A DNA stretch of 32,000 nt, taken from Candidatus Saccharimonadota bacterium (GTDB taxonomy: Archaea > Nanobdellota > Nanobdellia > Pacearchaeales > GW2011-AR1). The stretch is from the NCBI GenBank assembly GCA_041659445.1, contig JBAZYG010000001.1:180001-212000 (forward strand), written 5' to 3'. Of this stretch, positions 12,483-27,160 are shown in pieces (the stretch's first letter is position 1; each line of letters starts with the position of its first letter). A model generated the notes under the pieces. It saw only the letters and a list, made by a program, of their open reading frames with translations. It was not told the origin of the DNA and ran no database searches. The position numbers were made by a program, and so were the translations under genes.

Positions 12483-12555
12483 TGCCCCGTCCGGGATTCG
12501 GACCCGGGTTCCAGCCTTGAAAGGGCTGTGTCCTTGGCCTCTAGACTAACGGGGC
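12483..12555 (-). tRNA. tRNA-Glu (anticodon UUC), 73 nt, no encoded CCA
   Basis: The reverse complement folds as a cloverleaf. Acceptor GCCCCGT/ACGGGGC plus discriminator A. D stem GTCT/GGAC. Anticodon stem CAGCC/GGCTG with loop CTTTCAA. T stem CCGGG/CCCGG with loop TCCGAAT. Confidence 0.9.
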
Positions 12556-12682: not shown

Positions 12683-12720
12683 GTTGAATTAAATTTGTCA
12701 TTAACCATTCTGAGTTGAAC

Positions 12721-12843
12721 GAGCCTGTAGCTCAGCCTGGTTAGAGCACCGCTCTTATATGAATGTTGCTTTCAAAAAGCAATATCCTTTCTGGATTAGT
12801 CTAAGAAAGGCGGGGGTCCTCGGTTCAAATCCGAGCAGGCTCA
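12721..12843 (+). tRNA. tRNA-Ile (anticodon UAU) with a 48-nt intron at the canonical 37/38 position
   Basis: Acceptor GAGCCTG/CAGGCTC plus A73. D arm GCTC-AGCCTGGTTA-GAGC. Anticodon stem CCGCT/GGCGG. After splicing the loop is CT-TAT-AA. Variable loop GGGTC. T arm CTCGG-TTCAAAT-CCGAG. The exon junctions lie in 3-nt bulges (TAT and AAA) separated by a 4-bp helix CTTA/TAAG, which is a BHB motif. Confidence 0.88.
12760..12807 (+). other. tRNA-Ile intron (bulge-helix-bulge type)
   Basis: Removing 12760-12807 restores a 7-nt anticodon loop. The intron contains a 7-bp hairpin, ttgcttt/aaagcaa (12766-12782). A second pairing, cctttct/agaaagg (12786-12792 with 12804-12810), spans the 3' splice site. 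Confidence 0.75.
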
Positions 12844-12859
12844 TTTTATTTTTTATTTT
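12844..12859 (+). terminator. Oligo-T tract immediately downstream of tRNA-Ile
   Basis: ttttattttttatttt starts right after the discriminator base. Archaeal terminators are typically T-runs. Confidence 0.4.
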
Positions 12860-13021
12860 AATAACTTTTTGTTAATTTTTTTCTTAAAAACTGTAAGTAA
12901 AATTTATTTTAATTAATAATTAATTTCTTTTTAAAATAGTTTATATTAATTTAATTTTTATCGACGATAAATTAAGTGTAGGTAAAAGCAATATTTATAT
13001 AGTATAATTGTGTAGGATAAC

Positions 13022-13029
13022 TATAAAAA
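13022..13029 (+). promoter_or_regulatory. TATA-like box (tataaaaa) about 30 nt upstream of the first island gene
   Basis: It is centred about 30 nt before ATG 13056. A second candidate, tttatata, lies at 12994-13001. Two GTGTAGG direct repeats (12976-12982 and 13010-13016) flank that upstream candidate. Confidence 0.35.
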
Positions 13030-13055
13030 ATAATTAAGATTATTGATAAAAAAAG

Positions 13056-16000
13056 ATGGTGAAAAAGTTTAAAATCTATTTGTTAATTTGTATAATATTA
13101 TTTGTGATTTTAATTGATTTTTTATCTGCAGAATCAATTTCTGATACTCTTCATTTAAACATTCAAACAACTTATTCAAATGGGACAATTCAACCTGGAA
13201 CTTTTACTTTTGTTTTTAATATAACTACAGATTCTGCATGTTCAAATGTTGTTTATTCAAATTCTTCAACCTTGACTACTGATTCAAGAGGAATTATTTC
13301 TTATTATCTTGAAAATGTAAATTTGAATTTTACAAATCAGTATTACTTATGTTATTACAGAGACGGTGTTTTGATTAATAATTCTAAAATTGCAAGAAGC
13401 CCATATTCTTTTACAACAAAAAACGCAACAGTTAGTGGATTAATTAAAGATGCTAATTTAAACATGACTGGATATAATATTAGTGCAGATTATTTTTCAG
13501 GGACAGGAGCAAATTTAACAGAAAATTTAACTATTGGGAAAAAAATCATTTTTGGATTTGGTGAAACAATTGATAATTTAGTCAGTGGTTGGATTAAAAT
13601 AACTGGAAGTGCTAATGTTACAGGAAGTTTAATTGTCAACGGAAATATTAATTCTACTACTGGAGATATTTGTATAACAGGAGGAAATTGTTTGAGTACA
13701 GTTGCTTCAGGAACAGAACCTTTATGGACAGCAAACTTTACTGCTTATAACACGTCGTGGAGTTCAACTTATAATTCAAGTTATGTTCCTTATACTGGCT
13801 CAACTGCGAATGTTAGTTTAGGAGCTTATAATTTCAGCGTCGGAGGAACTGATTTTTTTGTTAATTCAAATAAAGATTCAATTTCATCTGGAGGTTCAAC
13901 AGCTTCGGGATTATATTCTGTTGCTTTAGGTGAATCAAATATTGCTTCAGGAGATGATTCAGTATCTTTAGGTTATAGTAATACTGCTTCAGATACTGGT
14001 GCTGTTGCCATTGGTTATCAATCAACTTCTTCTGCACCTTATTCAACAGCCTTAGGATATATGACAACTGCTTCTGGACAAAAATCAACTGCTTTTGGTG
14101 CATCAACAATAGCGTCATCAGATTATGCAATTGCAATGGGTTATTCAACTATTGCATCAGGAACATATTCTACAGCAATTGGTAGAGGAATAAATGTTTC
14201 TGGTTCAAATTCTGTTGGTATTGGATTAAATGATCAATCAGGAACTGTTCTTAGTCAAGCAAATACAATGTCAATTATGGGTGGAACAGTTGGAATAAAT
14301 ACAACAGCTCCTAAAAATACTTTAAATGTCATCGGAACAGGAAATATAACTGGAAATGTAACTTCACAAACTGATTTTTGTATTGAAGGTGGAAATTGTT
14401 TAAGTAGTGCTGTTGGAAGTTTAGGAAATATTTCAGGAGGTGGAGTAGAAAATTATATTCCTAAATGGATTGGATCAGCAAGTTTAGGGAATTCACTTGT
14501 TTATGATAATGGAACTTATGTTGGTATTGGAACAGCAACTCCAACATATCTTCTCGACGTGAATGGAAGTGGAAATATTGTGAATGATTTTAGAGTTGGA
14601 AATGATTTATTTGTTACAGGTTGGGTAAATTCAAGTGAAGATGTTTGCATTGTTGGAGGAAATTGTTTGAGTACAGTTGCTTCAGGAACAGAACCATTAT
14701 GGACTGCTAACTTTACTGCTTATAATTCTTCTTGGTCATTTACTTATAATGCAACTTATGACTCTTATAATTCAACTGGATTAATTAAAGATTGGAATTC
14801 TTCGGGTTTAATAATAAATTGGAGTACTGAATCTGGAATTGAATCTGATCCTTTATGGACTGCTAACTTTACTGCTTATAACTCGTCGTGGTCTTCAACT
14901 TATAATTCAAGTTATAATACTGCTTATAATTATACAATAAATGGGACATTTATGAGGAAAGATGGAGACAATGGTACTGGAGTTTATAATTTTGGAGGAG
15001 CTTGGAACGACGGAGGATTAACAATTTCTAATGGAAATTTGTATGCTCAAACTGTTTATGTTTATAATATAACTTCTTTGCAAGTTTCAAATTTAAACAT
15101 TAATGGTTCTTTAATTCCGCAAATTGGTTTTGATAATACTTTTGATGTTGGAAGTTCTTCATTAAGATGGAGAGATTTATACGTCGGTAGAAATATTTTT
15201 TCAAATGGAAGTATTAATGTTGATTCAGGAGGAGATATTTGTATTGTTGGGGGAAATTGTTTGTCAACATCTGGAACAGGTTCTGGAACAATTACAGGAG
15301 CTGGAACAGCGACGTATGTTCCCTTATGGAACGGAACTTCTTCGTTGAATAACTCAGTGATTTATCAAAATGGAAGTAAAATTGGAATTAATACCACTAT
15401 TCCGACAGCGACATTAGATGTTAATGGAAATATTCATGCTTCAGATATTTTTGCAACAGATGTTATTTCTGGAAGCACTGTTGGTTTTGTTTCAGTTGGT
15501 TTAGGTGGTTCTATTGGTGCACATAAAACTAATTATGATGCTAAAATTACCTTTCCTGAAACAGATGATATTTCTATTTATACAGGACTTTCTGGAGAAT
15601 TATTAAGAATTTCTGGGGATGATGGTGCTGTTGGAATTGGCGAATCAATTCCAGTGTATAAATTAGAGATTAAGGGAGTTCCTATGCCCTTGGAAACACC
15701 GTCGGGTAATGGTTATTTTGGAATAACTAATATTTCAGATGGAGATATTTTAGAAATTGATTATTCTGGGAATGTTGGTATAAATACTTCAACTCCACAA
15801 AATAAATTAAATGTCGTCGGAGATGGAAATTTTACAGGAAATTTATATTCTAATGGAGCACAAGTTTTAACATCTTATACTGAAACAGAACCATTATGGA
15901 CAGCAAACTTTACTGCTTATAACACGTCGTGGAGTTCAACTTACAATTCAACATATGCAAATTGGAATAAAACTTATGCTGATACTTTATATTCATCAAT

Positions 16001-17594
16001 CTCAGAACCTTTATGGACAGCAAACTTTACTGCTTATAACACGTCGTGGAGTTCAACTTATAATGCAAGTTATGATGCAAAATTAAGTGGAGTAGGAACT
16101 TCAGGTTATATTGCTGCGTGGAATGGAACTTCTTCGTTGAATAATTCAATTATTTATCAAAATGGAACTACCTTAAATATTTCTGGAAATATCTTTGTTC
16201 AAGGCGGTTCTGGAGATGTGAATAGTAATGGTGCTGTTAATTCAGCTGATTCATTATGGGTTAAACAATATTTAGCAGGAGCAGTTAATTTAACTGCAAA
16301 GCAATATGCAGAAGCAGATGTAAATGGAGATGGAAGAGTTGATTATTCAGATGTAGATTTAATTGAGCAAAAACTTACTGTTGAAGGATTGCCTTTAAAT
16401 GAAGTTCAAAGAGAAGGAAAAAGAGCTGTTGATTCAGCATATTTTATTGATTATGACAAAGATTTTGGGATAGGAAATTATTTTTCTGATGCTGGAGATT
16501 ATAATCTTACAAGTAAACTTTATGTTAATGGAACAGGAAATATCACACAAGATTTTTATGTTGGAAATGATTTAATTGTTACAGGTTGGGTAAATTCAAG
16601 TGAAGATTTTTGTATTGTTGGAGGAAATTGTTTAAGTAATAGTGCAGATGTTTCAGAACCTTTATGGACTGCAAACTTTACTGCTTATAACACGTCGTGG
16701 AGTTCAACTTATAATTCAAGTTATGTTCCTTATACTGGCTCAACTGCAAATGTTACTTTAGGAGATTATAATTTTTCAGTTGGGACTTCTGATTTTTTTG
16801 TTAATGCGGATTTAAGTTCAATTTCGTCTGGGGCAAGCTCAACAGCTTCGGGATTATATTCTGTTGCTTTAGGATATGTATCAACAGCTTTAGGGCCTTC
16901 TTCAGTAGCTGTTGGGAATCATGCATTCTCTTCAGGTGATTCTTCAATAGCATTAGGGCATTATACAAATGCTTCAGGTGATTCTTCAATAGCATTAGGT
17001 GATTTAACAAATGCTTCAGGAGCTTCTTCAACAGCGACTGGTTTTGCAACAACAGCTTCGGGATTTTTATCAACAGCAATGGGTAGAGAAATTATTGCAG
17101 GAGGAGATTATAGTTTTGCTATTGCATTGAATGATCAAAATAATTTGAATGTTTCTCAAGCAAATACAATGGCAATTATGGGGGGAAATGTTGGTATTGG
17201 AACAGCGACTCCTAATTCTATTTTAACAACTAAAGGAAATAATGTTTCATTTTTATCTGTTGGTGGAGAAAAAAGATTTTATTTTTTATCAAACGCAGAT
17301 GGTAATGAAGCTGTTTTTACAATGTATGATTTTTCAGAAACTGCAAGAATTTATTTGAATACTTATTCAGATAGTTACCTTAATGTTCCAACTGGAAAAT
17401 TTGGTATTAATACTTCAGCTCCTAAAAATACATTAAATGTTGTCGGAGATGGAAATTTTACTACAAATCTTTTTGTTGGAAGTAATATAACAACAGAAAA
17501 ATTAGTTTTTGAAACAAGTGCTTCTCATTACATCGACGATAATTCAACTTGTGTTAAAATTTACGGAAGTACAAGTATTTTAGAAATATGTTAA
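13056..17594 (+). CDS. Giant secreted mosaic fibre/adhesin-like protein (1512 aa): YadA-head-like repeats, tail-fibre-like motifs, embedded dockerin
   Basis: Sec-type signal (MVKKFKIYLLICIILFVILIDFLSA|ES). Two blocks of 14-residue xSxAxGxxxxASGx repeats. Five [DE]xCIxGGNCLS Cys-pair motifs. Recurrent (V/I)GI(G/N)TxxPxxxLxVxGxGN strings. Six EPLWTANFTAYNxSWSxTYN repeats. One dockerin-like double Ca-loop segment. Very high N-x-S/T density. Confidence 0.9.
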   Translation: MVKKFKIYLLICIILFVILIDFLSAESISDTLHLNIQTTYSNGTIQPGTFTFVFNITTDSACSNVVYSNSSTLTTDSRGIISYYLENVNLNFTNQYYLCYYRDGVLINNSKIARSPYSFTTKNATVSGLIKDANLNMTGYNISADYFSGTGANLTENLTIGKKIIFGFGETIDNLVSGWIKITGSANVTGSLIVNGNINSTTGDICITGGNCLSTVASGTEPLWTANFTAYNTSWSSTYNSSYVPYTGSTANVSLGAYNFSVGGTDFFVNSNKDSISSGGSTASGLYSVALGESNIASGDDSVSLGYSNTASDTGAVAIGYQSTSSAPYSTALGYMTTASGQKSTAFGASTIASSDYAIAMGYSTIASGTYSTAIGRGINVSGSNSVGIGLNDQSGTVLSQANTMSIMGGTVGINTTAPKNTLNVIGTGNITGNVTSQTDFCIEGGNCLSSAVGSLGNISGGGVENYIPKWIGSASLGNSLVYDNGTYVGIGTATPTYLLDVNGSGNIVNDFRVGNDLFVTGWVNSSEDVCIVGGNCLSTVASGTEPLWTANFTAYNSSWSFTYNATYDSYNSTGLIKDWNSSGLIINWSTESGIESDPLWTANFTAYNSSWSSTYNSSYNTAYNYTINGTFMRKDGDNGTGVYNFGGAWNDGGLTISNGNLYAQTVYVYNITSLQVSNLNINGSLIPQIGFDNTFDVGSSSLRWRDLYVGRNIFSNGSINVDSGGDICIVGGNCLSTSGTGSGTITGAGTATYVPLWNGTSSLNNSVIYQNGSKIGINTTIPTATLDVNGNIHASDIFATDVISGSTVGFVSVGLGGSIGAHKTNYDAKITFPETDDISIYTGLSGELLRISGDDGAVGIGESIPVYKLEIKGVPMPLETPSGNGYFGITNISDGDILEIDYSGNVGINTSTPQNKLNVVGDGNFTGNLYSNGAQVLTSYTETEPLWTANFTAYNTSWSSTYNSTYANWNKTYADTLYSSISEPLWTANFTAYNTSWSSTYNASYDAKLSGVGTSGYIAAWNGTSSLNNSIIYQNGTTLNISGNIFVQGGSGDVNSNGAVNSADSLWVKQYLAGAVNLTAKQYAEADVNGDGRVDYSDVDLIEQKLTVEGLPLNEVQREGKRAVDSAYFIDYDKDFGIGNYFSDAGDYNLTSKLYVNGTGNITQDFYVGNDLIVTGWVNSSEDFCIVGGNCLSNSADVSEPLWTANFTAYNTSWSSTYNSSYVPYTGSTANVTLGDYNFSVGTSDFFVNADLSSISSGASSTASGLYSVALGYVSTALGPSSVAVGNHAFSSGDSSIALGHYTNASGDSSIALGDLTNASGASSTATGFATTASGFLSTAMGREIIAGGDYSFAIALNDQNNLNVSQANTMAIMGGNVGIGTATPNSILTTKGNNVSFLSVGGEKRFYFLSNADGNEAVFTMYDFSETARIYLNTYSDSYLNVPTGKFGINTSAPKNTLNVVGDGNFTTNLFVGSNITTEKLVFETSASHYIDDNSTCVKIYGSTSILEIC
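13716..13784 (+). repeat. EPLW repeat copy 1 (EPLWTANFTAYNTSWSSTYNSSY)
   Basis: In-frame 69-nt unit. Near-identical at the DNA level to copies 4, 5 and 6. Confidence 0.9.
13908..14189 (+). repeat. YadA-head-like (Hep_Hag-type) 14-residue repeat block 1
   Basis: GLYSVALGESNIASGDDSVSLGYSNTASDTGAVAIGYQSTSSAPYSTALGYMTTASGQKSTAFGASTIASSDYAIAMGYSTIASGTYSTAIGRG has the periodic S/T-x-A-x-G pattern of left-handed beta-roll adhesin heads. Confidence 0.7.
14691..14759 (+). repeat. EPLW repeat copy 2 (EPLWTANFTAYNSSWSFTYNATY)
   Basis: In-frame 69-nt unit, more diverged at synonymous sites. Confidence 0.9.
14847..14915 (+). repeat. EPLW repeat copy 3 (DPLWTANFTAYNSSWSSTYNSSY)
   Basis: In-frame 69-nt unit. 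Confidence 0.9.
15888..15956 (+). repeat. EPLW repeat copy 4 (EPLWTANFTAYNTSWSSTYNSTY)
   Basis: In-frame 69-nt unit. Its core, atggacagcaaactttactgcttataacacgtcgtggagttcaactta, is identical to copy 5. Confidence 0.9.
16005..16073 (+). repeat. EPLW repeat copy 5 (EPLWTANFTAYNTSWSSTYNASY)
   Basis: In-frame 69-nt unit, 117 nt downstream of copy 4. Confidence 0.9.
16215..16376 (+). other. Dockerin-like domain (two EF-hand-like Ca-binding loops) inside the 1512-aa protein
   Basis: DVNSNGAVNSADSLWVKQYLAG...ADVNGDGRVDYSDVDLIEQKL has two DxNxDGxxxxxD loops, each followed by a helix. This is the duplicated segment architecture of type I dockerins. Confidence 0.75.
16656..16724 (+). repeat. EPLW repeat copy 6 (EPLWTANFTAYNTSWSSTYNSSY)
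   Basis: In-frame 69-nt unit. It begins a stretch (16656-16755) that shows 2 mismatches in 100 nt against 13716-13815. Confidence 0.9.
16851..17090 (+). repeat. YadA-head-like 14-residue repeat block 2
   Basis: GLYSVALGYVSTALGPSSVAVGNHAFSSGDSSIALGHYTNASGDSSIALGDLTNASGASSTATGFATTASGFLSTAMGRE shows the same periodicity as block 1. Confidence 0.7.
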
Positions 17595-17595
17595 A

Positions 17596-20500
17596 ATGGT
17601 TAATATTAAATCAAAAAAAAAGTTTTTTTTATTTTTGTTAGTCGTAACTTTTTTTATAATTCTTTTTGAAATTAGCTCGACTTCTGCTTGGCTTACTGGA
17701 TATGATTACAGAAAACAAATTAATCTTACTGGAGGAACTAATGCAGGAAATGATTATCAAATAAAATTAACAATAGGAAATACATCAGGAGGAGATTTTA
17801 ATTTAGGTGGAAATGCAACAAATTTTCCAAATGATATAAGATTTACAGATGACGACGGAGAAACACTCTTGCCCTATTGGATTGAAAATACAACAAGTCC
17901 AGCAATTTTTTGGGTTAAAGTAAATGATTCTCTTAATTCAAATCAAATTATTTATATTTATTATGGAAACTCAACTGTTTCAAGTGCAACTAACGGAACT
18001 GCGACTTTTGTAATGTTTGATGATTTTGAAAGCACTGCTTTAAATGCAGTCCCAGATTCAAGCAAATGGGTAATTACTGGAACAGACGCAAACGATAATG
18101 TAACTATTTATTTAGACCCAGCAAATGCTTCAAATCAAGTTGCAAGGACAATTGAACAAATTGATGGAGTTGGAACAAGATTATGGGTTAAAAATCTTAC
18201 TTCAAGTAATTATTCTTTTGATTTTGATTATAGAACAAGTGTAAATAGAGTTTATTATTTTTACATATATGATGGTGCTACTATTAGGACAACTATGAAT
18301 CTTGATACTACATTTCATTGGTATAATGGGGCAGCTTATCAAAATTTTGCCCCAGCAACTCCATCTCATTCTACAAATACTTGGTACGATACCGAAATAT
18401 TTGTAGCAGGACCTTTTTTAAATATGACTATTAATGGAGTAAATTATAAAGGAGGAGTTCGTTCAAATGCAACAGCATCAGTTACCTCATTAGTGATGAA
18501 TCCACATACTGCAAGTTTAACTCCTCCATTATACCAATATGTTGATGATTTTAGAGTAAGAAAGTTCTCTATGAATCCTCCAGTATTAAGTGCTGTCGGA
18601 GGACAAGAATTAATTCAAGGATTGACCTGTGGAAACTTATCTGATGGAACTTATACACTCACACAAAATGTAACAAGTAACACTACTTGTTTTATAACAA
18701 ATTCTACAAATGTTATTCTTGATTGTCAAGGATTTTATATTTATGGAAATAATTCTCCATCTTCTTATGGAGTATATTCAAATTATCCCAATACCACAGT
18801 TAAAAATTGTAATATTTTTAATTATTCTTCAGGTATAATTTTAGACAGCAATGCAAATTCAACATTAGAAAACAATACTATAAATGTTACTTTTAGCTCG
18901 GGTTCTGATGATTATGGAATTAAATTGGGTTCTGGAGTAAATTCAACAACTAAAAATAATATAATTAATGGTTCAGGAACAAATATTTATGCTTATATGT
19001 CTTATGCAATAAATAGTTCTTCAATTAATGACACAATATTTGTCCCTTCGGGTAGGGCTTCATTTTATTCCGTTGGAACTACAATGAATCAAGTTTTTAA
19101 TTTCACAAAACTAAATGGGAAAGGAGTAATATTTTATCAAGGAAATCCTTCATTTTACAATTTAAAAATGAATACAACTTCAGGTTCATCTATGGATTTA
19201 CCAAGAAATATTACCTTAAAAAACATAACAATAAATACAAATGGAGATGCTGATGCTGTAACAATATCAGGTGTAGGCGTTCATTTAGATTGTGAAAACG
19301 GAGTAATTAATGGTTCAAATATAGCATCAAGAAGTGGAGTATATTCTTCAGTAGGAAATGCTAAAATTAAAAATTGCAATATAAATAATTTCAATTATTG
19401 TATTAGGATATATGGAGGTATGAATAATTCTGTTGAAAATATTATTGCAACAACATCTTATAATGGTGGGATTCCATTAAATATTTATTTTCAATCAAAT
19501 TATACTCTTGTGAATAATTTCACAGGTTCAGCTCTTGTTAATGGTTTTGGTTTATCAATTCAATATTCAAGCCATAATGTAATTAATAATTCTAACTTTA
19601 ATTCACTTGGAGGTAGAGGAATTTATTTTTATGGTTTAATTGGAACAGGTTTAACTTTAAATAACACCCTAAACAATTCTTCAGGGAATTCTTCTTCAAA
19701 TTATGGAATTCAACTTTCAAGTTCTAATGATAATCTTATTTATAATTCCAATGGTTCAAGTAATACCTTAACAGGAATAGATTTAACAGATTCAAGTAAT
19801 AATTATTTTAATAATATAATTGGAAATTTAACAAACAATCCTACATCAACAGGTGACGGAATTACTCTCGAATCTAATTCAATAAATAATACTTTTGAAA
19901 ATTCTTTTGCAATATCAAACTCTCAAAAGGTAGATTCTTACAATTCTGCTTTTAGAATTTTTTACAGCAATAATAACACTCTTAATAATGTCACAGCAAA
20001 TGTTACAGGAATTAATGCAACAGGGATTTCCTTATATTCTTCAAATTATACTTTAATTAATGGTTCTGTTGGAGATAGCAACAATTTTAATAATTCGGGT
20101 TCAGGTATGCTGTTATCAAATTCAAGTCATAATGTACTTAATAATTCTGTTGCAATAAGTGGTCTAGGAAATGGGGCTTTGGGATTAAATACAAATAGTA
20201 ATTATAATAATATTGTAAATTTTATTGGAATTGCAAACTCAACTGAATATGGATGCAAATCTGTTGAGCCAAAATTAACTAACAACGTTGCCATTTTCAT
20301 AACAACAAGTAGTAGTTATAATAATTTAACAAATGTTTCAGGTTATAGTCGAAGTGAAGACGGAATTGCATTTTATAATAATTCTGCAAACAATATTGTA
20401 AATAATAGTTTGGGTTTAACTTATTCAAGTGTTGGGATTTTATTAACCAATTGGGCGTCTGATAATCAAGTTATTAATAGCACAGCAATCGCAATGGGTG

Positions 20501-21315
20501 GTTCTTGTGGAGGTGGAAAAGCATTTGGTATTGCAGATAATTCAAGTAGAAATAATATAACTAATATAACAGCAATTCAATATGGTGCTGTTTCAACAGA
20601 TGGGGCTTTTTTTATACGATGCATTGGGGCAACAGCCGAATGTCATCCTAATTTTAATAATACAGTAATTAATTCTAAAATTTTAATTTACAATTCTACA
20701 AATGGTATTTCAATAACAGACAATTCAACAGGAAATGTAATAAGAAATATTTCAATAAATTCAACATATACTTCTTCAACATTAAGTTTGCTAAAAGTTA
20801 ATTCATCAAATAATGTTTTTTGCTTAAACAATTTTACAAGTAATCTTGGAATTTATATAAATGATTCAAATGGAAGCAATACTTATAATTGCTCTTATGG
20901 TGGAAAGGTTCAAGGAAATATTTATGAAAATGTGAATAATGGAACAATAAATGTTCTCGGTTCAGAAAATTCTTCAATAGCAAATTACTATATTGGAAAA
21001 TATGGTTCTGGATATCCTTATAATCAAACAAATTCTTTAAATAAAATCTATGGTGCGGTAGACTACGTTCCTTTAACAATTTATTTAACTTCTTGCGCTT
21101 ATTCTGGTTCTGGAAATTGGGTAATAAATTGTTCAGAAAATTGCACCATATTAAGTAATACAGATGTAGTGGAAAATAATATTTCTATACTTGGAGTAGG
21201 AACTTTTAGAACTTCTGCAAATATAACTGGTTTTAGTAAATTAATAATTGCAGGAATAGATTCTTCAAATATTTGTAGAGTTACTTGTTTTGATGGGGGA
21301 TGTTTTAAAGATTAA
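17596..21315 (+). CDS. Secreted giant protein (1239 aa): DUF2341-like N-domain, LamG/concanavalin-like region, long right-handed parallel beta-helix (PbH1) repeat array
   Basis: Signal peptide (...ISSTSA|WLTG). WLTGYDYRKQINLTGG...NFPNDIRFTDDDGETLLPYWIE...FWVKV...IYIYYGN matches the DUF2341 signature as I recall it. From about aa 340 to 1100 there are tens of about 22-aa N-rich repeats of the type NxxxNNxIxNxxxGIxLxxSxxN. The start is 1 nt after the previous stop. Confidence 0.9.
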   Translation: MVNIKSKKKFFLFLLVVTFFIILFEISSTSAWLTGYDYRKQINLTGGTNAGNDYQIKLTIGNTSGGDFNLGGNATNFPNDIRFTDDDGETLLPYWIENTTSPAIFWVKVNDSLNSNQIIYIYYGNSTVSSATNGTATFVMFDDFESTALNAVPDSSKWVITGTDANDNVTIYLDPANASNQVARTIEQIDGVGTRLWVKNLTSSNYSFDFDYRTSVNRVYYFYIYDGATIRTTMNLDTTFHWYNGAAYQNFAPATPSHSTNTWYDTEIFVAGPFLNMTINGVNYKGGVRSNATASVTSLVMNPHTASLTPPLYQYVDDFRVRKFSMNPPVLSAVGGQELIQGLTCGNLSDGTYTLTQNVTSNTTCFITNSTNVILDCQGFYIYGNNSPSSYGVYSNYPNTTVKNCNIFNYSSGIILDSNANSTLENNTINVTFSSGSDDYGIKLGSGVNSTTKNNIINGSGTNIYAYMSYAINSSSINDTIFVPSGRASFYSVGTTMNQVFNFTKLNGKGVIFYQGNPSFYNLKMNTTSGSSMDLPRNITLKNITINTNGDADAVTISGVGVHLDCENGVINGSNIASRSGVYSSVGNAKIKNCNINNFNYCIRIYGGMNNSVENIIATTSYNGGIPLNIYFQSNYTLVNNFTGSALVNGFGLSIQYSSHNVINNSNFNSLGGRGIYFYGLIGTGLTLNNTLNNSSGNSSSNYGIQLSSSNDNLIYNSNGSSNTLTGIDLTDSSNNYFNNIIGNLTNNPTSTGDGITLESNSINNTFENSFAISNSQKVDSYNSAFRIFYSNNNTLNNVTANVTGINATGISLYSSNYTLINGSVGDSNNFNNSGSGMLLSNSSHNVLNNSVAISGLGNGALGLNTNSNYNNIVNFIGIANSTEYGCKSVEPKLTNNVAIFITTSSSYNNLTNVSGYSRSEDGIAFYNNSANNIVNNSLGLTYSSVGILLTNWASDNQVINSTAIAMGGSCGGGKAFGIADNSSRNNITNITAIQYGAVSTDGAFFIRCIGATAECHPNFNNTVINSKILIYNSTNGISITDNSTGNVIRNISINSTYTSSTLSLLKVNSSNNVFCLNNFTSNLGIYINDSNGSNTYNCSYGGKVQGNIYENVNNGTINVLGSENSSIANYYIGKYGSGYPYNQTNSLNKIYGAVDYVPLTIYLTSCAYSGSGNWVINCSENCTILSNTDVVENNISILGVGTFRTSANITGFSKLIIAGIDSSNICRVTCFDGGCFKD

Positions 21316-21316
21316 A

Positions 21317-22510
21317 ATGAAAATTGGAAATTTATTTTTTGTTTTTTTTATTTTTCTTTTTTCAATTTTAACTTTTGTAATTGTTTCAGCAGATGTTATT
21401 TCTGTTAATTCAGGAGGAAGTGAAAATGTAATAATAACTGCAGATAAATATCTTGAAGGTTTTTTCTTTTCTTCAAGAGACATTAATAATTTACCGAGCA
21501 ATCCTTTAAATGTAAAATTGGTTTCCTTGAATGGAAGAAATGAGTCAGATACTGATTTGAATTGTTCAGGATATATTACTGACGTTGAGAATTTGACTTT
21601 GACAGTATATGTAGATTGGATTAAAGATGATAATTCACAATTTATTCAAGTTTTTGAAAATCAATTAAACAATTCTGTGTTTTCAACTTTGTTAAATAAT
21701 GGAAATTTAAGTTTAGGAGATGTTTGGAAATGTTCATTGAAAGTTTCTGATGGAGAATATAATAGTAGTTGGATTGACTCAAATGAATTAACTATTATTG
21801 ATATAACAAATCCAAATGTAACAATTGTTCATCCAAATTCTTCTGCTAATTACACAAGTTTAGATATTGATTTCAATATTTCGATTTCTGAAAATGAAAA
21901 TATTTCTTGGTGTGGTTACAGCGTCAATGGAACAGCGAATGTAACAATGATTAGATTAAATGATTCTTATTTTTGGCATGAACCCCCAAACTTAACAGTT
22001 GGATTAAATAATGTAACTTTTTATTGTAATGATACTTCTGGAAATTGGGGAACAAATTTCACGAATTTTACAATTTTAGACGAGGCTGCAATTGCAATTC
22101 AATTGTCTCCTGCATTAAGTTTAACTGTTAATTGGACTTTGGAAAGTTTGCCTGCTAATGATTTGAACGCAGAAGGAAATAATTTAACTGGAGATACTTT
22201 GTATTGGGTAAATTTATCTGTAACTGCAACTACTGCAGATTTATACGTGAAAGCCGACGGAGATTTGCAAACTTTAGATTTAGATATTCTTGGTTTAGGA
22301 AATGAAACTTTTTGTGCAAATTTAACAAATTCTTCTGTTCCTGATTTAAATAGATTGATTATGAATACAAGTTATGTTTTAATTGCTGAAGATCTTCCTA
22401 GTAGTATAATTTATTTGAAATTTTATCTTGATGCTCCGTCGGGACAAGCAGCAGGAACTTATTTGAATAATTTAGATTTCAAAGCAGTAAATCATGGAAA
22501 CACTCCTTAA
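21317..22510 (+). CDS. Secreted three-domain protein; its C-terminal domain is paralogous to the 22586 and 23847 proteins (candidate tip or adaptor subunit)
   Basis: I prefer ATG 21317 (MKIGNLFFVFFIFLFSILTFVIVSA|DV), 1 nt after the upstream stop. The ORF-track start 21290 is a TTG and 21293 is an in-frame ATG, both overlapping the previous gene. Two beta-sandwich-like N-domains are present (GDVWKCSLKVSDGEY; WCGYSVNGTANVTM...VTFYCNDTSGNWG). The C-terminal part is ADLYVKADGDLQTLDLDILGLGNETF...LKFYLDAPSGQAAGTYLNNLDFKAV. Confidence 0.85.
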   Translation: MKIGNLFFVFFIFLFSILTFVIVSADVISVNSGGSENVIITADKYLEGFFFSSRDINNLPSNPLNVKLVSLNGRNESDTDLNCSGYITDVENLTLTVYVDWIKDDNSQFIQVFENQLNNSVFSTLLNNGNLSLGDVWKCSLKVSDGEYNSSWIDSNELTIIDITNPNVTIVHPNSSANYTSLDIDFNISISENENISWCGYSVNGTANVTMIRLNDSYFWHEPPNLTVGLNNVTFYCNDTSGNWGTNFTNFTILDEAAIAIQLSPALSLTVNWTLESLPANDLNAEGNNLTGDTLYWVNLSVTATTADLYVKADGDLQTLDLDILGLGNETFCANLTNSSVPDLNRLIMNTSYVLIAEDLPSSIIYLKFYLDAPSGQAAGTYLNNLDFKAVNHGNTP

Positions 22511-22585
22511 TTTTTTAAAAGAAATTAATTTCACTAGAAAAAATAAATCTTTATAAAGTATATTCTCTTATTTAAATCAATTAAT

Positions 22586-23203
22586 ATGAAAAAGAAAGGT
22601 GTGATATTTTATCGTTTGATTTTGATTTTAATTCTTTTAGCAGTTATTGTTTTATTAATTGTTCAAAATCTTCCTAAAGTTACTGGAAATTCAATTACTG
22701 GTTTTGCAACAAGTGGAAATACTACTTCAAATGTTACAATTACTTCTTATTTATCAATTGCGTTTTGTGATAATTTATCTACAGGAATTTGGTTTGGAGA
22801 AGTTGCAAGTTTACCTGTAACAAATCAAAATGGAACACATAATGCAGATGGTGCTAGTAGTGGAAGTACTTATTGTTTGAATGTTTCTGCTGATTCAAAT
22901 ACAAATGTTGATTTTTGTACAAAAGCAAGTGGAAATTTGACAACAACCGGAGCAGATGTTATTGTTTTAGCAAATGAAACTTGGAATAATGCAACAACCA
23001 CAGATGCAACAACTCCATCTTATGCTACTGAAAATATTTTGACAACAGATTATGTCAAATCCGGTGGTAATGTTGCTAGCGACGGTACTGGTGTCAATTA
23101 TTACAGATTCTGGTTAGATATTCCAGGTGGACAAGCAGCAGGAACATATAATAATACTGTATTTTTCAAAGGAGTAAATACTGGAAATCCATGTGGTGCA
23201 TAA
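22586..23203 (+). CDS. Small sequon-rich secreted/anchored protein, paralogue family member (205 aa)
   Basis: The N-terminus MKKKG-VIFYRLILILILLAVIVLLIV is a basic leader plus a 22-residue hydrophobic helix. It also has SIAFCDNLSTGIWFGEV, NVSADSNTNVDFCTKASGNL, LANETW and YYRFWLDIPGGQAAGTYNNTVFFKGV. There are about nine N-x-S/T sequons. It has its own TATA-like ctttataaag upstream. Confidence 0.85.
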   Translation: MKKKGVIFYRLILILILLAVIVLLIVQNLPKVTGNSITGFATSGNTTSNVTITSYLSIAFCDNLSTGIWFGEVASLPVTNQNGTHNADGASSGSTYCLNVSADSNTNVDFCTKASGNLTTTGADVIVLANETWNNATTTDATTPSYATENILTTDYVKSGGNVASDGTGVNYYRFWLDIPGGQAAGTYNNTVFFKGVNTGNPCGA

Positions 23204-23210
23204 AATTAAA

Positions 23211-23840
23211 ATGAAGAAAAAAAAGGTGACATTCGTTGAGAAAATTTTGTTTTTAAGTTTAGTCTTGACTTTGATTTTACCTTTGGCAACTGCAGGTGTT
23301 GGTGTTAAATGGAGTAAAGAATCTTCTTTAGTTTCAGAAAATTCAAAAGTTTGTATGTCTTATGATGTTTATAATCCATGGCCACAAGATACTTATGCTA
23401 CAATTAGTTTATCTCCGGAATTAATGGAAATTATTGATTATATTGGTTCAGATATTGTTTTCCTTCCTAATGAGACATCAAGTACAAATGCTATTCCTGT
23501 TGAATTTTGTTTTAAAACACCAAAAGTTTATGAAAAAGATTGTTGGGTTGGAGATGTATTTTTTTGTAAGCAAGATTGTTTAGAAGAAATGAAAACTTAT
23601 GAAGGTGAAGTGTTGGTAATGGAAACTTCTCCAGATCAATCATCTCAATCTGCACAAGGTTCTGCTACTAAAATGTCTGTTTCTGCACCTTTGAGAATTA
23701 GAGTTCAATGTGAAGCACAAAATAGAAATTTCAGTGCATTGTATGTTCTTGTTGGACTTATTGCATTAATATTATTGATAATAAATTTAGTTAAAAACAA
23801 GAAAAGCAAGCAAAATAAAAAGATTAAGAAAAAGAAATAA
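23211..23840 (+). CDS. Type I membrane protein: signal peptide, Cys-containing beta-rich ectodomain, C-terminal TM anchor and poly-Lys tail
   Basis: I prefer ATG 23211 (MKKKKVTFVEKILFLSLVLTLILPLATA|GVGVKW). The track start 23193 is a GTG overlapping the upstream gene. The C-terminus is ALYVLVGLIALILLIINLV-KNKKSKQNKKIKKKK. Confidence 0.8.
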   Translation: MKKKKVTFVEKILFLSLVLTLILPLATAGVGVKWSKESSLVSENSKVCMSYDVYNPWPQDTYATISLSPELMEIIDYIGSDIVFLPNETSSTNAIPVEFCFKTPKVYEKDCWVGDVFFCKQDCLEEMKTYEGEVLVMETSPDQSSQSAQGSATKMSVSAPLRIRVQCEAQNRNFSALYVLVGLIALILLIINLVKNKKSKQNKKIKKKK

Positions 23841-23846
23841 AATCAT

Positions 23847-24431
23847 ATGATTTCTAAAAATCAAATTTTTTATAAGACTTTTTTGATTGTGATAATTTTT
23901 TTATGCGTTATCTTAATTATTTTTCAAAATTCAAATAATTTTACTGGAAATTATTTATTAAATACTACATCTAATGTTTCATTATTTAAATATTATTCAA
24001 TTGCGTTTAGTGATAATTTGTCTTCTGGAATTGAATTTGGAACAATAGAAAATCTTCCTGCAGTTAGTGTTAATGCAACATATAATTATTTGGGTTTGAG
24101 TAATTCAACAGAATATTTTATTAATGTTTCAAATGATTCAAATACAAATATTGATTTTTGCATAAAAGCCGACGGAGATTTAGAAAGTATTGCAAGTGAT
24201 ATTTTGGGATTAGGAAATGAAACTTATAATAATGCAACATTCACTAATTTATCCTCGCCCTCGGATACAGAGGTTTTGTTGACGACTTCTTATGTTAAAT
24301 CAGGAAGTAATGTTTTAATTGGTGGAGTAAATTATTATCGTTTTTGGCTTGATGTTCCATCAGGACAAGCAGCTGGAACATATAACAATACTGTTAATTT
24401 CAAAGCAGTTGAAACAGATTATTCTTGTTAA
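23847..24431 (+). CDS. Small sequon-rich secreted/anchored protein, paralogue family member (194 aa)
   Basis: The N-terminus MISKNQ-IFYKTFLIVIIFLCVILIIF is homologous to that of the 22586 protein. It also has SIAFSDNLSSGIEFGTI, NVSNDSNTNIDFCIKADGDLES..DILGLGNETY and YYRFWLDVPSGQAAGTYNNTVNFKAV. There are about a dozen sequons. Confidence 0.85.
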   Translation: MISKNQIFYKTFLIVIIFLCVILIIFQNSNNFTGNYLLNTTSNVSLFKYYSIAFSDNLSSGIEFGTIENLPAVSVNATYNYLGLSNSTEYFINVSNDSNTNIDFCIKADGDLESIASDILGLGNETYNNATFTNLSSPSDTEVLLTTSYVKSGSNVLIGGVNYYRFWLDVPSGQAAGTYNNTVNFKAVETDYSC

Positions 24432-24469
24432 TTAGAAAGCATTAAAAATCTGAAATTATTATTTTCTTT

Positions 24470-25930
24470 ATGATTAAAAAAGAGGTGTTTATTTTTATCT
24501 TTATTTTTTGTGTATCTCTTGTGTTTGCAATAACTGGTTATGTTACAGAAGGAAATTCTCCGTCATCAGTTACTATTGAAGGTTTGAGAATTGTTTATTC
24601 TACTTTTAATGGTTCTACAACTAATTTTAATTCCTTGAATACATCTGAATTAAATAATTTATCATTGATGACTTTAGAAAAATCTAGTTATGGTAAAGTT
24701 ATTTTTAATCAAAGTGTTAATTTGACTTTAACTGCAGGAGTGGATAAAATTGTTAATTTTGATTTGGATTTGAACATTTCTAATAATTTAATTTATATTG
24801 ATGATTCGGATTTACCTTATTTAAATAAAACAGTTACTATGTTTTTATATGGTCTTAGTTATACAAATCCAAGGATAATTCATAATGGTGTTGTTTGTAG
24901 TGATTGTACTAAATTAAGTTATTCTGGAGGTAATTTAACTTTTTCAGCAACTACTTTTAGTGGAACTTATTATGCACAAGAAACTCCTGTTTCTCCTGTA
25001 TGTGGAAATGGTGTTTGTGAATCTGGAGAAACTTCTACTAGCTGTTCTGCAGATTGTGGAAGTGGTGGTGGAGGCGGTGGAGGGGGAGGCGGAGGCGGTG
25101 GTGGAGTTACTCCTCCGATGACAACAGGCGTTAGTTTTTACATTGTTCCAGATTTTTTAGCAATTTCAATGTATAGAGGAGAATATTTTCAAAAAAATAT
25201 TATTATTGTTAATAACGGAACCGAGGATTTAATAATTGGAGCATTTGTTTCAGGATTAGATAAATTTGTTTTTCCTCAAGAAGAAATATTTGAAGTTAAA
25301 GCTGGACAAAATTATACTTTAAGATTAAATATTTATGTTTCTAGTTCAACAAATATTGATGTTTACGTCGGTAAGGTTTTATTTCAATCAAAATCACTTG
25401 ATAAAAGTATTAATTTTATTTTAGATGTTAAAGAAAAAGGGGCGTTATTTGACATTAGAACAAATGTTACAAAAAGATATGTTCCTCCAGGAAGAGATGT
25501 TCTTGCAAAAATTTTAATTATAAATAAAGGAGAATTAAGAAATTTTGATGTTTCTTTAGAATATAAAATTTTAGATTTTGAAAATAATAGTTATATGCCC
25601 AAACAAGAAGATTTTGCAATAAATGAAACTTTTGCAAATACCTTTTCCTTGCATGTTCCTTCTGATCTTCCAATTGGACAATATTTATTCTACGCTAAAG
25701 TTAATTATGGAAATGTTAGTGCAACTAGTTATGATACATTTATTGTTGAAACAGTTTCATTTTGGTCTTGGATAATTTTAATAATAGTTATTATAATTTT
25801 GATTGCAATAATCTTTTTTATCTTGAGAAAAAGGAAAAAGAAAAAAGAAGGGAAACTTAAACCAAAATCATTTTTTAAGAAACCTTCTTTAGTTAAAAGA
25901 AAATTAAGATATCCTAAAATAAATGAATAA
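24470..25930 (+). CDS. Type I membrane surface protein: Cys-knot-like CGNGVCE module, poly-Gly linker, CARDB/COG1470-like beta-sandwich domains, C-terminal TM anchor
   Basis: Signal peptide (FIFCVSLVFA|IT). PVCGNGVCESGETSTSCSADCG is followed by 14 consecutive Gly. Then come IIIVNNGTEDL... and LIINKGELRNFDVSLEYKI, which are CARDB-like strand patterns. The C-terminus is WSWIILIIVIIILIAIIFFIL-RKRKKKKEGK. Confidence 0.88.
   Translation: MIKKEVFIFIFIFCVSLVFAITGYVTEGNSPSSVTIEGLRIVYSTFNGSTTNFNSLNTSELNNLSLMTLEKSSYGKVIFNQSVNLTLTAGVDKIVNFDLDLNISNNLIYIDDSDLPYLNKTVTMFLYGLSYTNPRIIHNGVVCSDCTKLSYSGGNLTFSATTFSGTYYAQETPVSPVCGNGVCESGETSTSCSADCGSGGGGGGGGGGGGGGVTPPMTTGVSFYIVPDFLAISMYRGEYFQKNIIIVNNGTEDLIIGAFVSGLDKFVFPQEEIFEVKAGQNYTLRLNIYVSSSTNIDVYVGKVLFQSKSLDKSINFILDVKEKGALFDIRTNVTKRYVPPGRDVLAKILIINKGELRNFDVSLEYKILDFENNSYMPKQEDFAINETFANTFSLHVPSDLPIGQYLFYAKVNYGNVSATSYDTFIVETVSFWSWIILIIVIIILIAIIFFILRKRKKKKEGKLKPKSFFKKPSLVKRKLRYPKINE
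25064..25105 (+). repeat. GGN codon tract encoding 14 consecutive glycines
   Basis: ggtggtggaggcggtggagggggaggcggaggcggtggtgga. By eye this is the most GC-rich patch in the window. It is low-complexity and imperfectly repetitive. Confidence 0.9.
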
Positions 25931-25975: not shown

Positions 25976-27160
25976 ATGTTAATAGGGCTTGTTGGAAAAC
26001 CTTCTGTTGGGAAAAGTACATTTTTTAAAGCAGCAACTTTAGCAGAAGTAGAAATTGCAAGTTATCCTTTCACGACGATAAAAGCAAATCATGGTGTTGG
26101 TTATGTCAAAGTAGATTGTATTGATAAAGAATTTAATGTTAAGTGTAATCCGAGTCATGGTTTTTGTATTAATCATAAAAGATTTGTGCCAATTGATTTA
26201 ATGGATGTTGCTGGTTTAGTGCCTGGAGCTTCTGAAGGTAAAGGTTTAGGAAATCAATTTTTGGATGATTTAAGACAAGCAGATTGTTTTATTCACATTG
26301 TTGATATTTCTGGTGAAACAGACGTCGAAGGAAAACCAACAAAAGGTCATGATCCAAAAGAAGATATTTTATTTTTAGAAGAAGAACTTGATAAATGGTA
26401 TCATGGAATTTTAATAAAAGTATGGACTTCATTTTCAAAAAAAGTAGATAATGAAAAAAGAAAATTTTCAGAAGCAATTGTTAAACAATTTTCAGGATTA
26501 AAAGTTAAAGAAGAACATGTCAAAGAAGTTTTGTTAAAATTAAATCTTCCTGAGAAATCTTCTATTTGGAGTGAAGAACAAGTTAAATCTTTTGCAAAAA
26601 AACTTAGACAAATTTCAAAGCCTATGATTATTGCTGCAAATAAAATAGAACTTAGCGATGGTAAAAGAAATTACGAGAAAGTTAAAAAAGAATTTCCTGA
26701 GTTGAAAATAATTCCTTGCTCTGCAGATTCAGAATTAGCTTTAAGGCAAGCTACGAAAGCAGGTTTGATTGAATATATTCCTGGTGAAAATCATTTTGAA
26801 ATTTTAAAAGAATTAAATGAAAAACAAAAATCTGCTTTGATTAAAATTCAAAAAGAAATTTTGGATGTTTTTGAATTTGGGACAGGAGTTCAAGAAGTTT
26901 TGAATTATGCTATTTTTGATATTTTAAAATATCTTGCAATTTTTCCTGCATCTGCAAATAAATTAGGAGATAGTAAAGGAAATATTCTTCCAGATTGTTT
27001 TTTATTGCCTCCAGATTCAACAGCGTTGGATTTTGCTTTCTATCTTCATACTGATTTTGGTAAAAATTTTATTAAGGCAATTAATGCAAGAACAAAAATG
27101 GCTCTTGGAAAAGATTACAAATTAAAGAATAGAGATGCTTTAGAAATTATTACAAGATAA
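25976..27160 (+). CDS. ychF: YchF/OLA1-type Obg-family P-loop ATPase/GTPase with C-terminal TGS-like domain
   Basis: G1 GLVGKPSVGKSTFF, G2 region YPFTTI, G3 DVAGLVPGASEGKGLGNQFL, and G4 as NKIE (the NxxE variant typical of YchF). The length of 394 aa is typical of the archaeal form. Confidence 0.9.
   Translation: MLIGLVGKPSVGKSTFFKAATLAEVEIASYPFTTIKANHGVGYVKVDCIDKEFNVKCNPSHGFCINHKRFVPIDLMDVAGLVPGASEGKGLGNQFLDDLRQADCFIHIVDISGETDVEGKPTKGHDPKEDILFLEEELDKWYHGILIKVWTSFSKKVDNEKRKFSEAIVKQFSGLKVKEEHVKEVLLKLNLPEKSSIWSEEQVKSFAKKLRQISKPMIIAANKIELSDGKRNYEKVKKEFPELKIIPCSADSELALRQATKAGLIEYIPGENHFEILKELNEKQKSALIKIQKEILDVFEFGTGVQEVLNYAIFDILKYLAIFPASANKLGDSKGNILPDCFLLPPDSTALDFAFYLHTDFGKNFIKAINARTKMALGKDYKLKNRDALEIITR

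Follow-up and report, generated by a model that had tools for sequence, protein, structure and literature searches.

A conserved gene module of DPANN archaea with pilin-like subunits, a predicted PapD-fold protein and a proposed membrane anchor: a possible usher-less surface fibre

Background

The described surface systems that bear closest comparison with the archaeal genes reported here are the chaperone-usher (CU) pili of the Fim, Pap, Csu and CFA/I types, the WxL/WxLIP (Csc) clusters of Firmicutes, fibres of the TasA/TapA/SipW type together with archaeal AbpA, CanA and tafi, and the threads of Sulfolobus acidocaldarius (Saci_0406, arCOG10215). The N-terminus of TapA resembles the donor strand of TasA, and TapA nucleates and anchors the fibre (PMC9674648); some proteins of the tafi cluster likewise have only their N-terminus in common with TafA (PMC11821415). 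A strand of WxLIP is predicted to insert into WxL (PMC10599100), and thread filaments are donor-strand fibres in which glycans are an integral part, with neither a chaperone nor an usher identified for them (PMC9715654). Here we analyse a 32,000-nucleotide stretch of contig JBAZYG010000001.1 (assembly GCA_041659445.1, positions 180,001 to 212,000, forward strand; hereafter the window), which carries an island of seven consecutive genes, G1 to G7. The last five recur in a common order in 51 species-level loci of DPANN archaea and encode a large and two small proteins with a shared domain of about 150 amino acids (aa), which we call PIL, alone in G4 and G6 and C-terminal in G3, together with two membrane-anchored proteins, G5 and G7. 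We propose, with a probability that we put at roughly 45%, that G3 to G7 encode a DPANN-specific, ATPase-independent and usher-less surface fibre or short fibrillar stalk formed by beta-strand complementation, with G3 as the tip, G4 and G6 as the stalk, G7 as the anchor and G5 in a chaperone-like role.

DPANN archaea rely on being physically attached to host cells, and the molecules responsible are largely unknown in the uncultured Pacearchaeota and Woesearchaeota. The module offers a concrete, widely conserved candidate for attachment with defined parts (tip, stalk, anchor and chaperone-like protein). No curated family covers the proteins of G3 to G7, and our search of the literature linking DPANN archaea or Pacearchaeota with donor-strand assembly, chaperone-usher systems, PapD, pili or adhesins found no description of the cluster, whose unusual feature is a pair of membrane-anchored immunoglobulin (Ig)-like partners, one of them with a predicted PapD fold. 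The known archaeal donor-strand fibres (threads, bundling pili, cannulae and tafi) are without a recognisable chaperone, and a PapD-fold partner would, if true, alter the view of how such fibres are assembled without an outer membrane and bear on whether the logic of CU and WxL-type systems is ancient or convergent. In addition, the C-terminal PIL domain provides a handle for finding the variable giant adhesins in these genomes.

Results and discussion

A conserved module within an island of exported proteins

The island lies at positions 13056-25930 of the window, which is AT-rich (GC about 27%), and consists of seven open reading frames (ORFs) on the + strand. The gaps from G1 to G7 measure 1, 1, 75, 7, 6 and 38 nucleotides (nt) when G3 and G5 begin at their most likely start codons, ATG 21317 and ATG 23211 respectively; the G5 start agrees with the 209-aa database protein P0094. 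Every product has a hydrophobic segment near its N-terminus (maximal 19-residue Kyte-Doolittle mean of 2.4-3.2 within the first 60 aa, most neighbours staying below 1.1), and G5 and G7 also have a C-terminal transmembrane (TM) segment followed by a Lys-rich tail. An earlier description of the island made from the letters of the DNA, hereafter the sequence-only reading, had reported seven secreted or anchored products from tightly spaced + strand genes, two of them anchored at the C-terminus, and the features just listed bear this out. It had also suspected a DPANN archaeon as the source, and the G6 protein is indeed 100% identical to a protein of Candidatus Pacearchaeota.

Enrichment in N-glycosylation sequons (N-x-S/T) was expressed as a z score against 300 shuffles of the same composition. 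It is highest in G1 (76 sequons, z 8.0), G2 (78, z 6.8) and G3 (z 6.5) and lower in G7 (z 4.0, at a moderate 2.9 per 100 aa), G6 (12 sequons, z 3.8) and G4 (9, z 2.5), with a density of 0-1.5 per 100 aa in the cytoplasmic neighbours. Of the claim that all seven proteins are extremely rich in sequons, enrichment holds for these six, as does the count of about 9-12 given for G4 and G6, but not for G5, which is at background with 2 sequons in total (0.93 per 100 aa, z 0.6).

To place the island among other genomes, we gathered loci through gene-context look-ups and added 51 loci from species-representative genomes, searching their six-frame ORFs with phmmer and hmmsearch. Across the 51 species-level loci the recurrent order is a large PIL-ended protein, one to three small PILs, a G5-like protein, sometimes a further PIL, and a G7-like protein. 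The G5 family is present in 49 of 55 loci and the G7 family in 47, and where the locus lies in the interior of its contig all four families are found on one strand in 15 of 20 cases. Order and co-occurrence are kept down to about 30-40% identity and over a GC range of 24% to 68%. Such clustering, recurring in some 50 other genomes, is far beyond chance, and we regard G3 to G7 as a conserved functional unit of four co-inherited families. Homologues of G1, in contrast, occur in only 3 of the 55 loci and of G2 in only 1, so the conserved apparatus is G3 to G7, with G1 and G2 as exchangeable cargo adhesins. The single coordinated surface apparatus that the sequence-only reading had envisaged for all seven genes, with synteny in other DPANN genomes as its check, is upheld in this narrower form and not for the two giant genes.

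Near-universal presence of the module in this DPANN clade, often beside housekeeping genes, is what one would also expect if the small PILs, G5 and G7 were structural parts (a lattice or stalks) of an envelope or surface-layer (S-layer) associated glycoprotein coat, with the giant proteins mere neighbours. The products are exported or anchored and sequon-rich, and a C-terminal TM segment with a basic tail is typical of archaeal envelope proteins. Yet a 160-aa domain that ends hypervariable, adhesin-like proteins of 0.3-3.2 kaa is not an S-layer pattern, PIL copy number varies, Pfam and NCBIfam searches of the seven proteins returned no S-layer family, and the fold matches described below are to pilins and chaperones; we consider a coat of this kind improbable.

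Several loci differ from the common pattern or add to it. In the clade that diverges most, the gene right after the G7 homologue encodes a P-loop ATPase of MinD/ParA type (CbiA/ParA/AAA_31, E 1e-21 to 1e-25). It is found at L004 5534-6340 on the - strand, L043 13086-13862, L046 12907-13710 and a JGI contig gene at 12715-13509, and in one case the two genes overlap by 4 nt. The ATPase, which is absent from the window, may be a partner in cytoplasmic positioning or owe its place to local synteny. Locus L055 (2622-10990, 68% GC), labelled 'uncultured Halobacteria archaeon', holds a full module with three small PILs, G5, G7 and a 1285-aa PIL-ended protein; its leaders are of Sec type, not Tat type, and its large PIL protein retains the C-terminal Cys, so that either the family reaches beyond low-GC DPANN archaea or the bin is mislabelled. 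In L003 (5603-6618), and also in L008, L015, L018 and L033, the large PIL gene is directly preceded by two small genes that look like a nucleotidyltransferase-type toxin-antitoxin pair; the products of the L003 pair are about 188 aa, with NTP_transf_2/Polbeta matches, and about 150 aa.

The PIL domain and its large and small forms

G4 (22586-23203, + strand) encodes a small PIL protein of 205 aa that matches the PIL profile with E 3.7e-79 and carries the N-terminal strand motif ITGFATSGNTTSNVTI at nt 22694-22741, and G6 (23847-24431, +) encodes a second of 194 aa, with its N-terminal motif at nt 23940-23984, a conserved Cys105 and a C-terminal Cys194. The two are 53% identical (E 2e-69). G3 (21317-22510, +), or PIL-L, has a signal peptide and about 220 aa of N-terminal beta-rich domains, with a large-type PIL at its extreme C-terminus (nt 22058-22501); the profile covers aa 257-404 of 406 (E 5.9e-32), leaving 2 aa beyond it, and the last 160 aa are 43% identical to G6 (E 9e-27). 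The paralogy of three small subunits claimed in the sequence-only reading is therefore real, but G3 is a protein of about 400 aa and not of about 200 aa. Proteins of 387-405 aa occupy the G3 position in loci L001, L008, L009, L015, L033 and L035. Across genomes, more than 33 large proteins of 264-3212 aa have a PIL domain that stops 1-3 aa before the C-terminus, and in other genomes such proteins (up to 3,212 aa) bear beta-helix, LamG or WD40-like modules ahead of it.

The small-subunit family comprises 93 clusters at 90% identity in a large protein database, and those with a named source are all from Pacearchaeota, Nanoarchaeota or an archaeon; at the 50% identity level the G6 family has 717 representatives with E <= 1e-3. 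From N- to C-terminus the PIL alignment shows a hydrophobic leader, TG-x-A, a near-invariant T/S-S-N-V-T/S-I/V strand and a beta-rich body ending in Y-Y-R-F-W-L-D-V-P...G-x-Y-N-N-T-V-x-F-K-G-V...C. The conserved TG-x-A would be a suitable site for signal peptidase I, giving a predicted mature N-terminus of T-E-x-x-T-S-N-V-T-I. Positions 43, 76, 124 and 180 each carry a sequon in 79-92% of the small PILs, which average 9.4 sequons per protein. Large and small forms are further distinguished by their cysteines: Cys105 and the C-terminal Cys occur together in 68 of 75 small PILs, and neither is found in any of 33 large PILs, G3 included, 32 of which have Tyr at position 105. This joint presence and joint absence suggests a disulfide bond, which we infer to be intramolecular.

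The leader bears on whether the PILs could belong to a type IV pilus or archaellum-like system, a canonical CU pilus or a sortase pilus. An N-terminal hydrophobic helix is present in the structural model of a PIL, and the basic-tailed TM segments of G5 and G7 give weak matches to LPXTG anchors. However, a class III signal peptide is lacking, as is a [KR]-G/A site for cleavage ahead of the hydrophobic core; a PilB/PilC-type ATPase or platform protein, an usher and a sortase are not among the annotated genes (the flanks being partly annotated), and the Fimbrial, Usher and PapD models of Pfam are unmatched. With their defining parts absent, we give these systems next to no probability. Type IV pilin, sortase/LPXTG and S-layer readings were rejected on the same basis, the lack of defining motifs and genes.

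Searches of Pfam and NCBIfam gave no match for any protein of G3 to G7. No fimbrial pilin family was found in G3, G4 or G6 in either database, a single weak match to DUF4402 (E 0.015) being the only one of this kind among 60 PIL members, and a search of PDB sequences with the PIL profile returned nothing at E <= 10, the solved thread subunit 7pnb included. Structure was examined through AlphaFold2 models of the monomers of G6 and G5. The G6 model (predicted local distance difference test, pLDDT, 89.9) has seven strands and the N-terminal hydrophobic helix just mentioned; confidence is low at residues 31-50, and the near-invariant S42-N43-V44 stretch has a pLDDT of 49-69. Such poor placement is expected of a strand whose partner is another molecule, and we count it in favour of strand complementation. 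In a Foldseek search of the PDB with this model, a GH123 beta-sandwich came first and was followed mainly by CfaB, CsuA/B, FimA, FimI, PapA, SafA and thread 7pnb, with E from 6e-3 to 0.1 and target TM-scores of 0.4-0.57; nothing reached E <= 1e-3. We treat this likeness to donor-strand pilins as a lead, not as proof.

The threads of S. acidocaldarius resemble the module in several respects. They are archaeal and Sec/SPI-dependent, their heavily N-glycosylated Ig-like subunit has a conserved N-terminal tail, and they are encoded by a small operon with a paralogous minor subunit (PMC9715654); the solved subunit 7pnb is among the fold matches of G6 at E 0.03. On the other hand, PIL has no sequence similarity to the thread subunit and lacks the Asp24/YYY isopeptide motif (as described in PMC9715654), and thread clusters contain no recognisable chaperone-like or anchored partner, whereas the module has both.

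G7 and the strand motif shared with PIL

G7 (24470-25930, +; 486 aa) consists of a signal peptide, the segment ITGYVTEGNSPSSVTI (nt 24530-24577), an N-terminal domain (N-domain), a CGNGVCE motif, a poly-Gly run, two Ig-like domains of PapD/ASH type, a TM segment (nt 25757-25825) and a Lys-rich tail. When the G7 family was compared with the PIL family using hhalign, only 16 columns were aligned, just after the signal sequence (probability 88.6%, E 2.6e-6). They pair the segment given above with the PIL consensus iTG-x-AT-e-g-s-T-t-SNVTI, a likeness visible by eye in most members. We then built an 18-column hidden Markov model (HMM) of the PIL motif and ran it, with a cut-off of 7 bits or more, on 1,374 ORFs, comprising all loci together with G1 to G7 of the window and the adjoining GTPase gene. 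It matched 65 PILs and 17 of 50 G7 proteins, in the latter always at about aa 20-50, and none of 53 G5 proteins or 1,155 other ORFs. G7 is thus best described as a predicted C-terminally anchored protein with a body unrelated to PIL and a PIL-type N-terminus.

The same arrangement, in functional analogy, is seen in TapA with TasA (PMC9674648) and in tafi (PMC11821415), since G7 has only the N-terminal strand region of PIL. Sec/Tat export, cleavage of the signal peptidase I type and chaperone-free extracellular assembly are further likenesses to the fibres of this group, but the PapD-like protein present in the module is absent from those systems. No match to TasA/camelysin (Peptidase_M73) or to S26 was found in the island or the annotated window flanks, nor was a SipW/TafD signal-peptidase or DUF5305 gene found in the annotated window flanks or the examined loci. 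Among the top 50 fold matches of PIL, leaving aside the entry 9ikj (TLP-1a), none is named as a TasA-type subunit.

The shared motif can be read otherwise. It covers both the predicted TG-x-A cleavage site and the near-invariant N-V-T/S sequon, and it might be a determinant of signal-peptidase processing or N-glycosylation, the island being a co-regulated group of secreted proteins with no physical assembly among them; physical interaction of the products is, after all, deduced here. This view does not account for the conservation, across the range of identity (about 30-40%) and GC (24-68%) given above, of the order and co-occurrence of four families that are otherwise unannotated. The fusion of PIL to diverse large proteins and its split into subtypes imply a physical partnership, and G5 is exported yet has no motif. 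We therefore hold a mere secretome island to have little chance of being correct.

Homologues of G7 give many sub-threshold Pfam matches to Ig domains of the PapD/ASH type (Cep192 D3/D4, HYDIN/VesB, WxLIP_PGBD), which fall in the domains N-terminal to the TM segment; a search of PDB sequences with the G7 profile gave no meaningful match, WxLIP included. At aa 178-212 a Cys-rich mini-motif, CGNGVCESGE...C..DC, which in some homologues is DUF4215-like (E 6e-9), precedes a run of 13 Gly, and together they make up a hinge that flexibly joins the N-domain to the Ig domains. Matches of G7 to scFv linkers in the PDB were dismissed as artefacts of the poly-Gly linker, an hhalign match between G7 and G5 was discarded because the TM segment and Lys tail alone were aligned, and a match of the N-domain to 'Nucleoporin2 autopeptidase' (13 of 43 members, best E 2e-4) is below threshold and was left uninterpreted.

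G5, a predicted PapD-fold protein

The gene between the two small PILs, G5 (23211-23840, +), encodes a 209-aa protein with a signal peptide, an MSP/PapD-like Ig domain containing six conserved Cys, a TM segment at about nt 23733-23792 and a Lys-rich tail. It has no match in Pfam, PapD included, and a search of PDB sequences with its profile gave no meaningful match, WxLIP included. In the AlphaFold2 model (pLDDT 86.2) a flexible Gly-rich linker joins the last strand, with the TM helix directly after it. Foldseek matched the model to MSP/VAP and HYDIN 'PapD-like' domains (E 7e-5 to 1e-3), to the Enterococcus faecium WxLIP structure 9i1y (E 3.8e-4) and to the CU chaperones CfaA, Caf1M and SafB (E about 2e-3). 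On the evidence of this model, G5 has the predicted MSP/PapD fold of pilus chaperones and of the Enterococcus WxLIP. A relationship of G5 to PIL as paralogues was not accepted, the hhalign probability of 16% being insignificant.

The module has much in common with CU pili: an Ig-like subunit with CfaB, CsuA/B, FimA and PapA among its nearest solved folds, a two-part tip protein with its adhesin domains N-terminal and its pilin-type domain C-terminal, and a PapD/MSP-fold protein in the operon, with no ATPase within the cluster. In contrast to CU pili, it would work without an outer membrane, which archaea are not known to possess, and without an usher, no usher beta-barrel being found in the window or the annotated neighbourhoods. 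The PapD-like G5 is a single-domain, membrane-anchored protein, similarity to the Fimbrial and PapD families of Pfam is absent, the subunits are predicted to be heavily N-glycosylated, and G7 bears a subunit-type strand.

The likeness of G5 to WxLIP raises the possibility that the module encodes a non-filamentous display complex similar to a WxL cluster, in which PIL would dock adhesins on the anchored G5 and G7, possibly through insertion of a single strand, as a 1:1 complex or a small oligomer. The cluster logic is the same, with domain-only small proteins, large proteins in which the domain is C-terminal and a TM-anchored tandem-Ig protein (PMC10599100, PMC9772566), often accompanied by a small anchored protein (PMC10599100, PMC1534035), and the PIL monomer model resembles a complete seven-strand sandwich. 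The likeness is one of architecture only, together with the G5 fold and the strand insertion from an anchored protein predicted in WxL. At the sequence level WxLIP_PGBD matches 6 of 43 G7 homologues and 2 of 60 PILs, but each match to the module is below the gathering threshold of Pfam (best E 1.2e-3), and WxL is outside the 25 most frequent families when the 60 PIL members are searched at E <= 1. Where the WxL domain contains two W-x-L motifs, the near-invariant motif of PIL is R-F-W-L-D; anchoring in the module is by a TM helix and not by LPXTG, and G7 has an additional N-domain, a Cys-rich motif and a poly-Gly linker. DPANN archaea are generally not expected to possess peptidoglycan, the proposed ligand of WxL. 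A display complex also leaves the G7 copy of the PIL strand, the two PIL subtypes and the one to three copies of small PIL without explanation, and the best fold matches of PIL are to pilins that polymerise. It is the most credible of the alternatives to a fibre, and we judge it somewhat unlikely.

The sequence-only reading had stated that, generic domains aside, no component maps to a described archaeal system. This is correct for the sequences, the searches of Pfam, NCBIfam and the PDB being empty for G3 to G7, but at the level of folds there are likenesses: that of the small subunit to donor-strand pilins and threads, the predicted PapD/MSP fold of G5, and the N-terminal strand motif that G7 has in common with the pilin-like subunit. 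In its logic the module therefore resembles strand-exchange fibres and WxL clusters, and 'only generic domains' was an understatement.

A possible usher-less surface fibre

In the fibre that we propose, the Ig-like subunits would be exported by Sec, cleaved at TG-x-A and assembled outside the cell. The N-terminal strand of each small PIL (T/S-S-N-V-T-I...) would insert into the adjoining PIL domain, so that G4 and G6 form a heavily N-glycosylated stalk. The large PIL protein G3, with its adhesin domains N-terminal to PIL as in FimH and PapG, would be the distal tip or adaptor, and at the other end G7 would donate its PIL-type strand to the cell-proximal PIL and thereby anchor the fibre to the membrane, nucleate it there, or both, much as has been proposed for TapA with TasA. 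G5 would transiently hold or cap newly exported PILs at the membrane surface, in the manner of PapD-like chaperones and WxLIP. G1 and G2 would be co-transcribed, lineage-specific adhesins whose equivalents elsewhere are fused straight to PIL. Such a structure would probably serve to make the cell adhere, be it to a host cell or to a surface; the adhesive function is suggested by domain content, and attachment to a host cell in particular is pure conjecture.

A number of observations weigh against this fibre. Polymerisation and strand exchange are deduced from genes and monomer models. The fold matches of PIL are weak, with none at E <= 1e-3, best TM-scores of about 0.5 and a GH123 beta-sandwich domain at the top, and because the monomer model already has seven strands, an open acceptor groove is putative. 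The N-terminal strand segment is retained in large PILs and could be the mere first strand of the domain, and the motif common to G7 and PIL spans the signal-peptidase region and an N-glycosylation sequon, so processing common to both might explain it. With its one Ig domain and TM anchor, G5 is unlike the chaperones of CU systems, which are soluble proteins of two domains; the MSP fold is widespread and not specific to chaperones, and the comparison of G5 with the PIL profile (16%) is not significant.

Were the proposed fibre real in all its parts, it would be the first archaeal pilus system to pair donor-strand subunits with a dedicated PapD-fold chaperone-like protein and a strand-donating membrane anchor, in an usher-less 'inner-membrane chaperone-anchor' pathway, conserved in DPANN archaea of the Pacearchaeota, Woesearchaeota and Nanoarchaeota types, by which these ultrasmall episymbionts present hypervariable giant adhesins to their hosts. 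We regard this wider claim as possible but doubtful. The module might share ancestry with CU pili and the WxL clusters of Firmicutes, or might have converged on them.

G1 and G2 as variable adhesins

The two giant proteins, described in the sequence-only reading as fibre or beta-helix proteins, are just that, and their rarity among the loci marks them as lineage-variable cargo adhesins. G1 (13056-17594, +) is a secreted repeat fibre of 1512 aa with YadA-head-like repeats at about nt 13797-14273, a second copy of them near the C-terminus, and a type I dockerin (nt 16212-16376). Pfam finds YadA_head in seven stretches (E 3.1e-31) and Dockerin_1 with E 6.5e-13 and 49.1 bits against a cut-off of 22.9. 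The YadA-head block is duplicated between the N-terminal and C-terminal parts (237 aa at 56% identity), and the protein contains six repeats of the form PLWTANFTAYN...SW(S)STYN and five of the form C-I/V-x-GGNCLS. G1 ends in a C-terminal Cys, as do the small PILs. Likeness to trimeric autotransporter adhesins and to cellulosomal dockerin proteins is confined to this gene of the island and to its YadA-head repeats and type I dockerin; it differs from them in having an archaeal host and in lacking the YadA barrel anchor, the C-terminal anchor domain giving no match (NCBIfam score 27.8 against a cut-off of 750 bits). No cohesin was matched by Pfam in G1 to G7 at E <= 0.1, and the partner of the dockerin may lie elsewhere in the genome.

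G2 (17596-21315, +) is a secreted protein of 1239 aa with DUF2341 at nt 17830-18072 (E 4.6e-23) and a right-handed beta-helix at about nt 19207-19635 (Beta_helix, E 1.1e-5). The PIL profile finds no domain in G1 or G2. Over residues 344-476, the entry region of its beta-helix, G2 shares 34% identity (E 4e-10) with the beta-helix of a PIL-ended protein of 887 aa in L003, and this beta-helix-PIL fusion provides a Rosetta-stone link between adhesins of the G2 type and the PIL system.

Boundaries of the island and neighbouring genes

Upstream, the island is bounded by two tRNA genes, as the sequence-only reading had noted: a tRNA-Glu (UUC) at 12483-12555 on the - strand (ARAGORN; Rfam tRNA, 61 bits) and an intron-containing tRNA at 12721-12843 on the + strand, for which the full Rfam model RF00005 aligns across 123 nt with 55 bits. 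The second was missed by ARAGORN, and an archaeal intron is presumed. The downstream boundary is a housekeeping NTPase gene at 25976-27160 (+), which had been called an ATPase and in fact belongs to the Obg/YGR210-like GTPases (Pfam YGR210-like_G4, E 4.4e-30, with MMR_HSR1 and TGS). Its membership of the module was ruled out because it adjoins the module downstream in only 25 of 55 loci, about half.

Within the island, the sole sizeable gap (75 nt) holds a TATA-like box, CTTTATAAAG, read from the sequence at 22549-22558 (+), about 30 nt 5' of G4. It is a possible internal promoter for extra expression of the small subunits, though in a genome of 27% GC such a box is weak evidence.

Three further neighbours deserve mention. 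An ORF at 3335-5269 (+) encodes a 644-aa exported glycoprotein with an N-terminal anchor, a C-terminal alpha/beta-hydrolase domain of lipase/PGAP1-like type and 17 sequons (z 3.1); it may be a secreted lipase that matters to a host-dependent way of life. A GT2 glycosyltransferase gene (10087-10794, +; E 4e-26), 2 kb 5' of the island, could have a role in the synthesis of N-glycans or dolichol-linked sugars for the sequon-rich products. Downstream, at 29726-30455 (+), a gene with a PhageMetallopep domain is followed by a DUF192 gene, and the same pair is kept downstream of the module in L001 and L003, which makes it part of a conserved chromosomal backbone and not a genome-specific prophage remnant.

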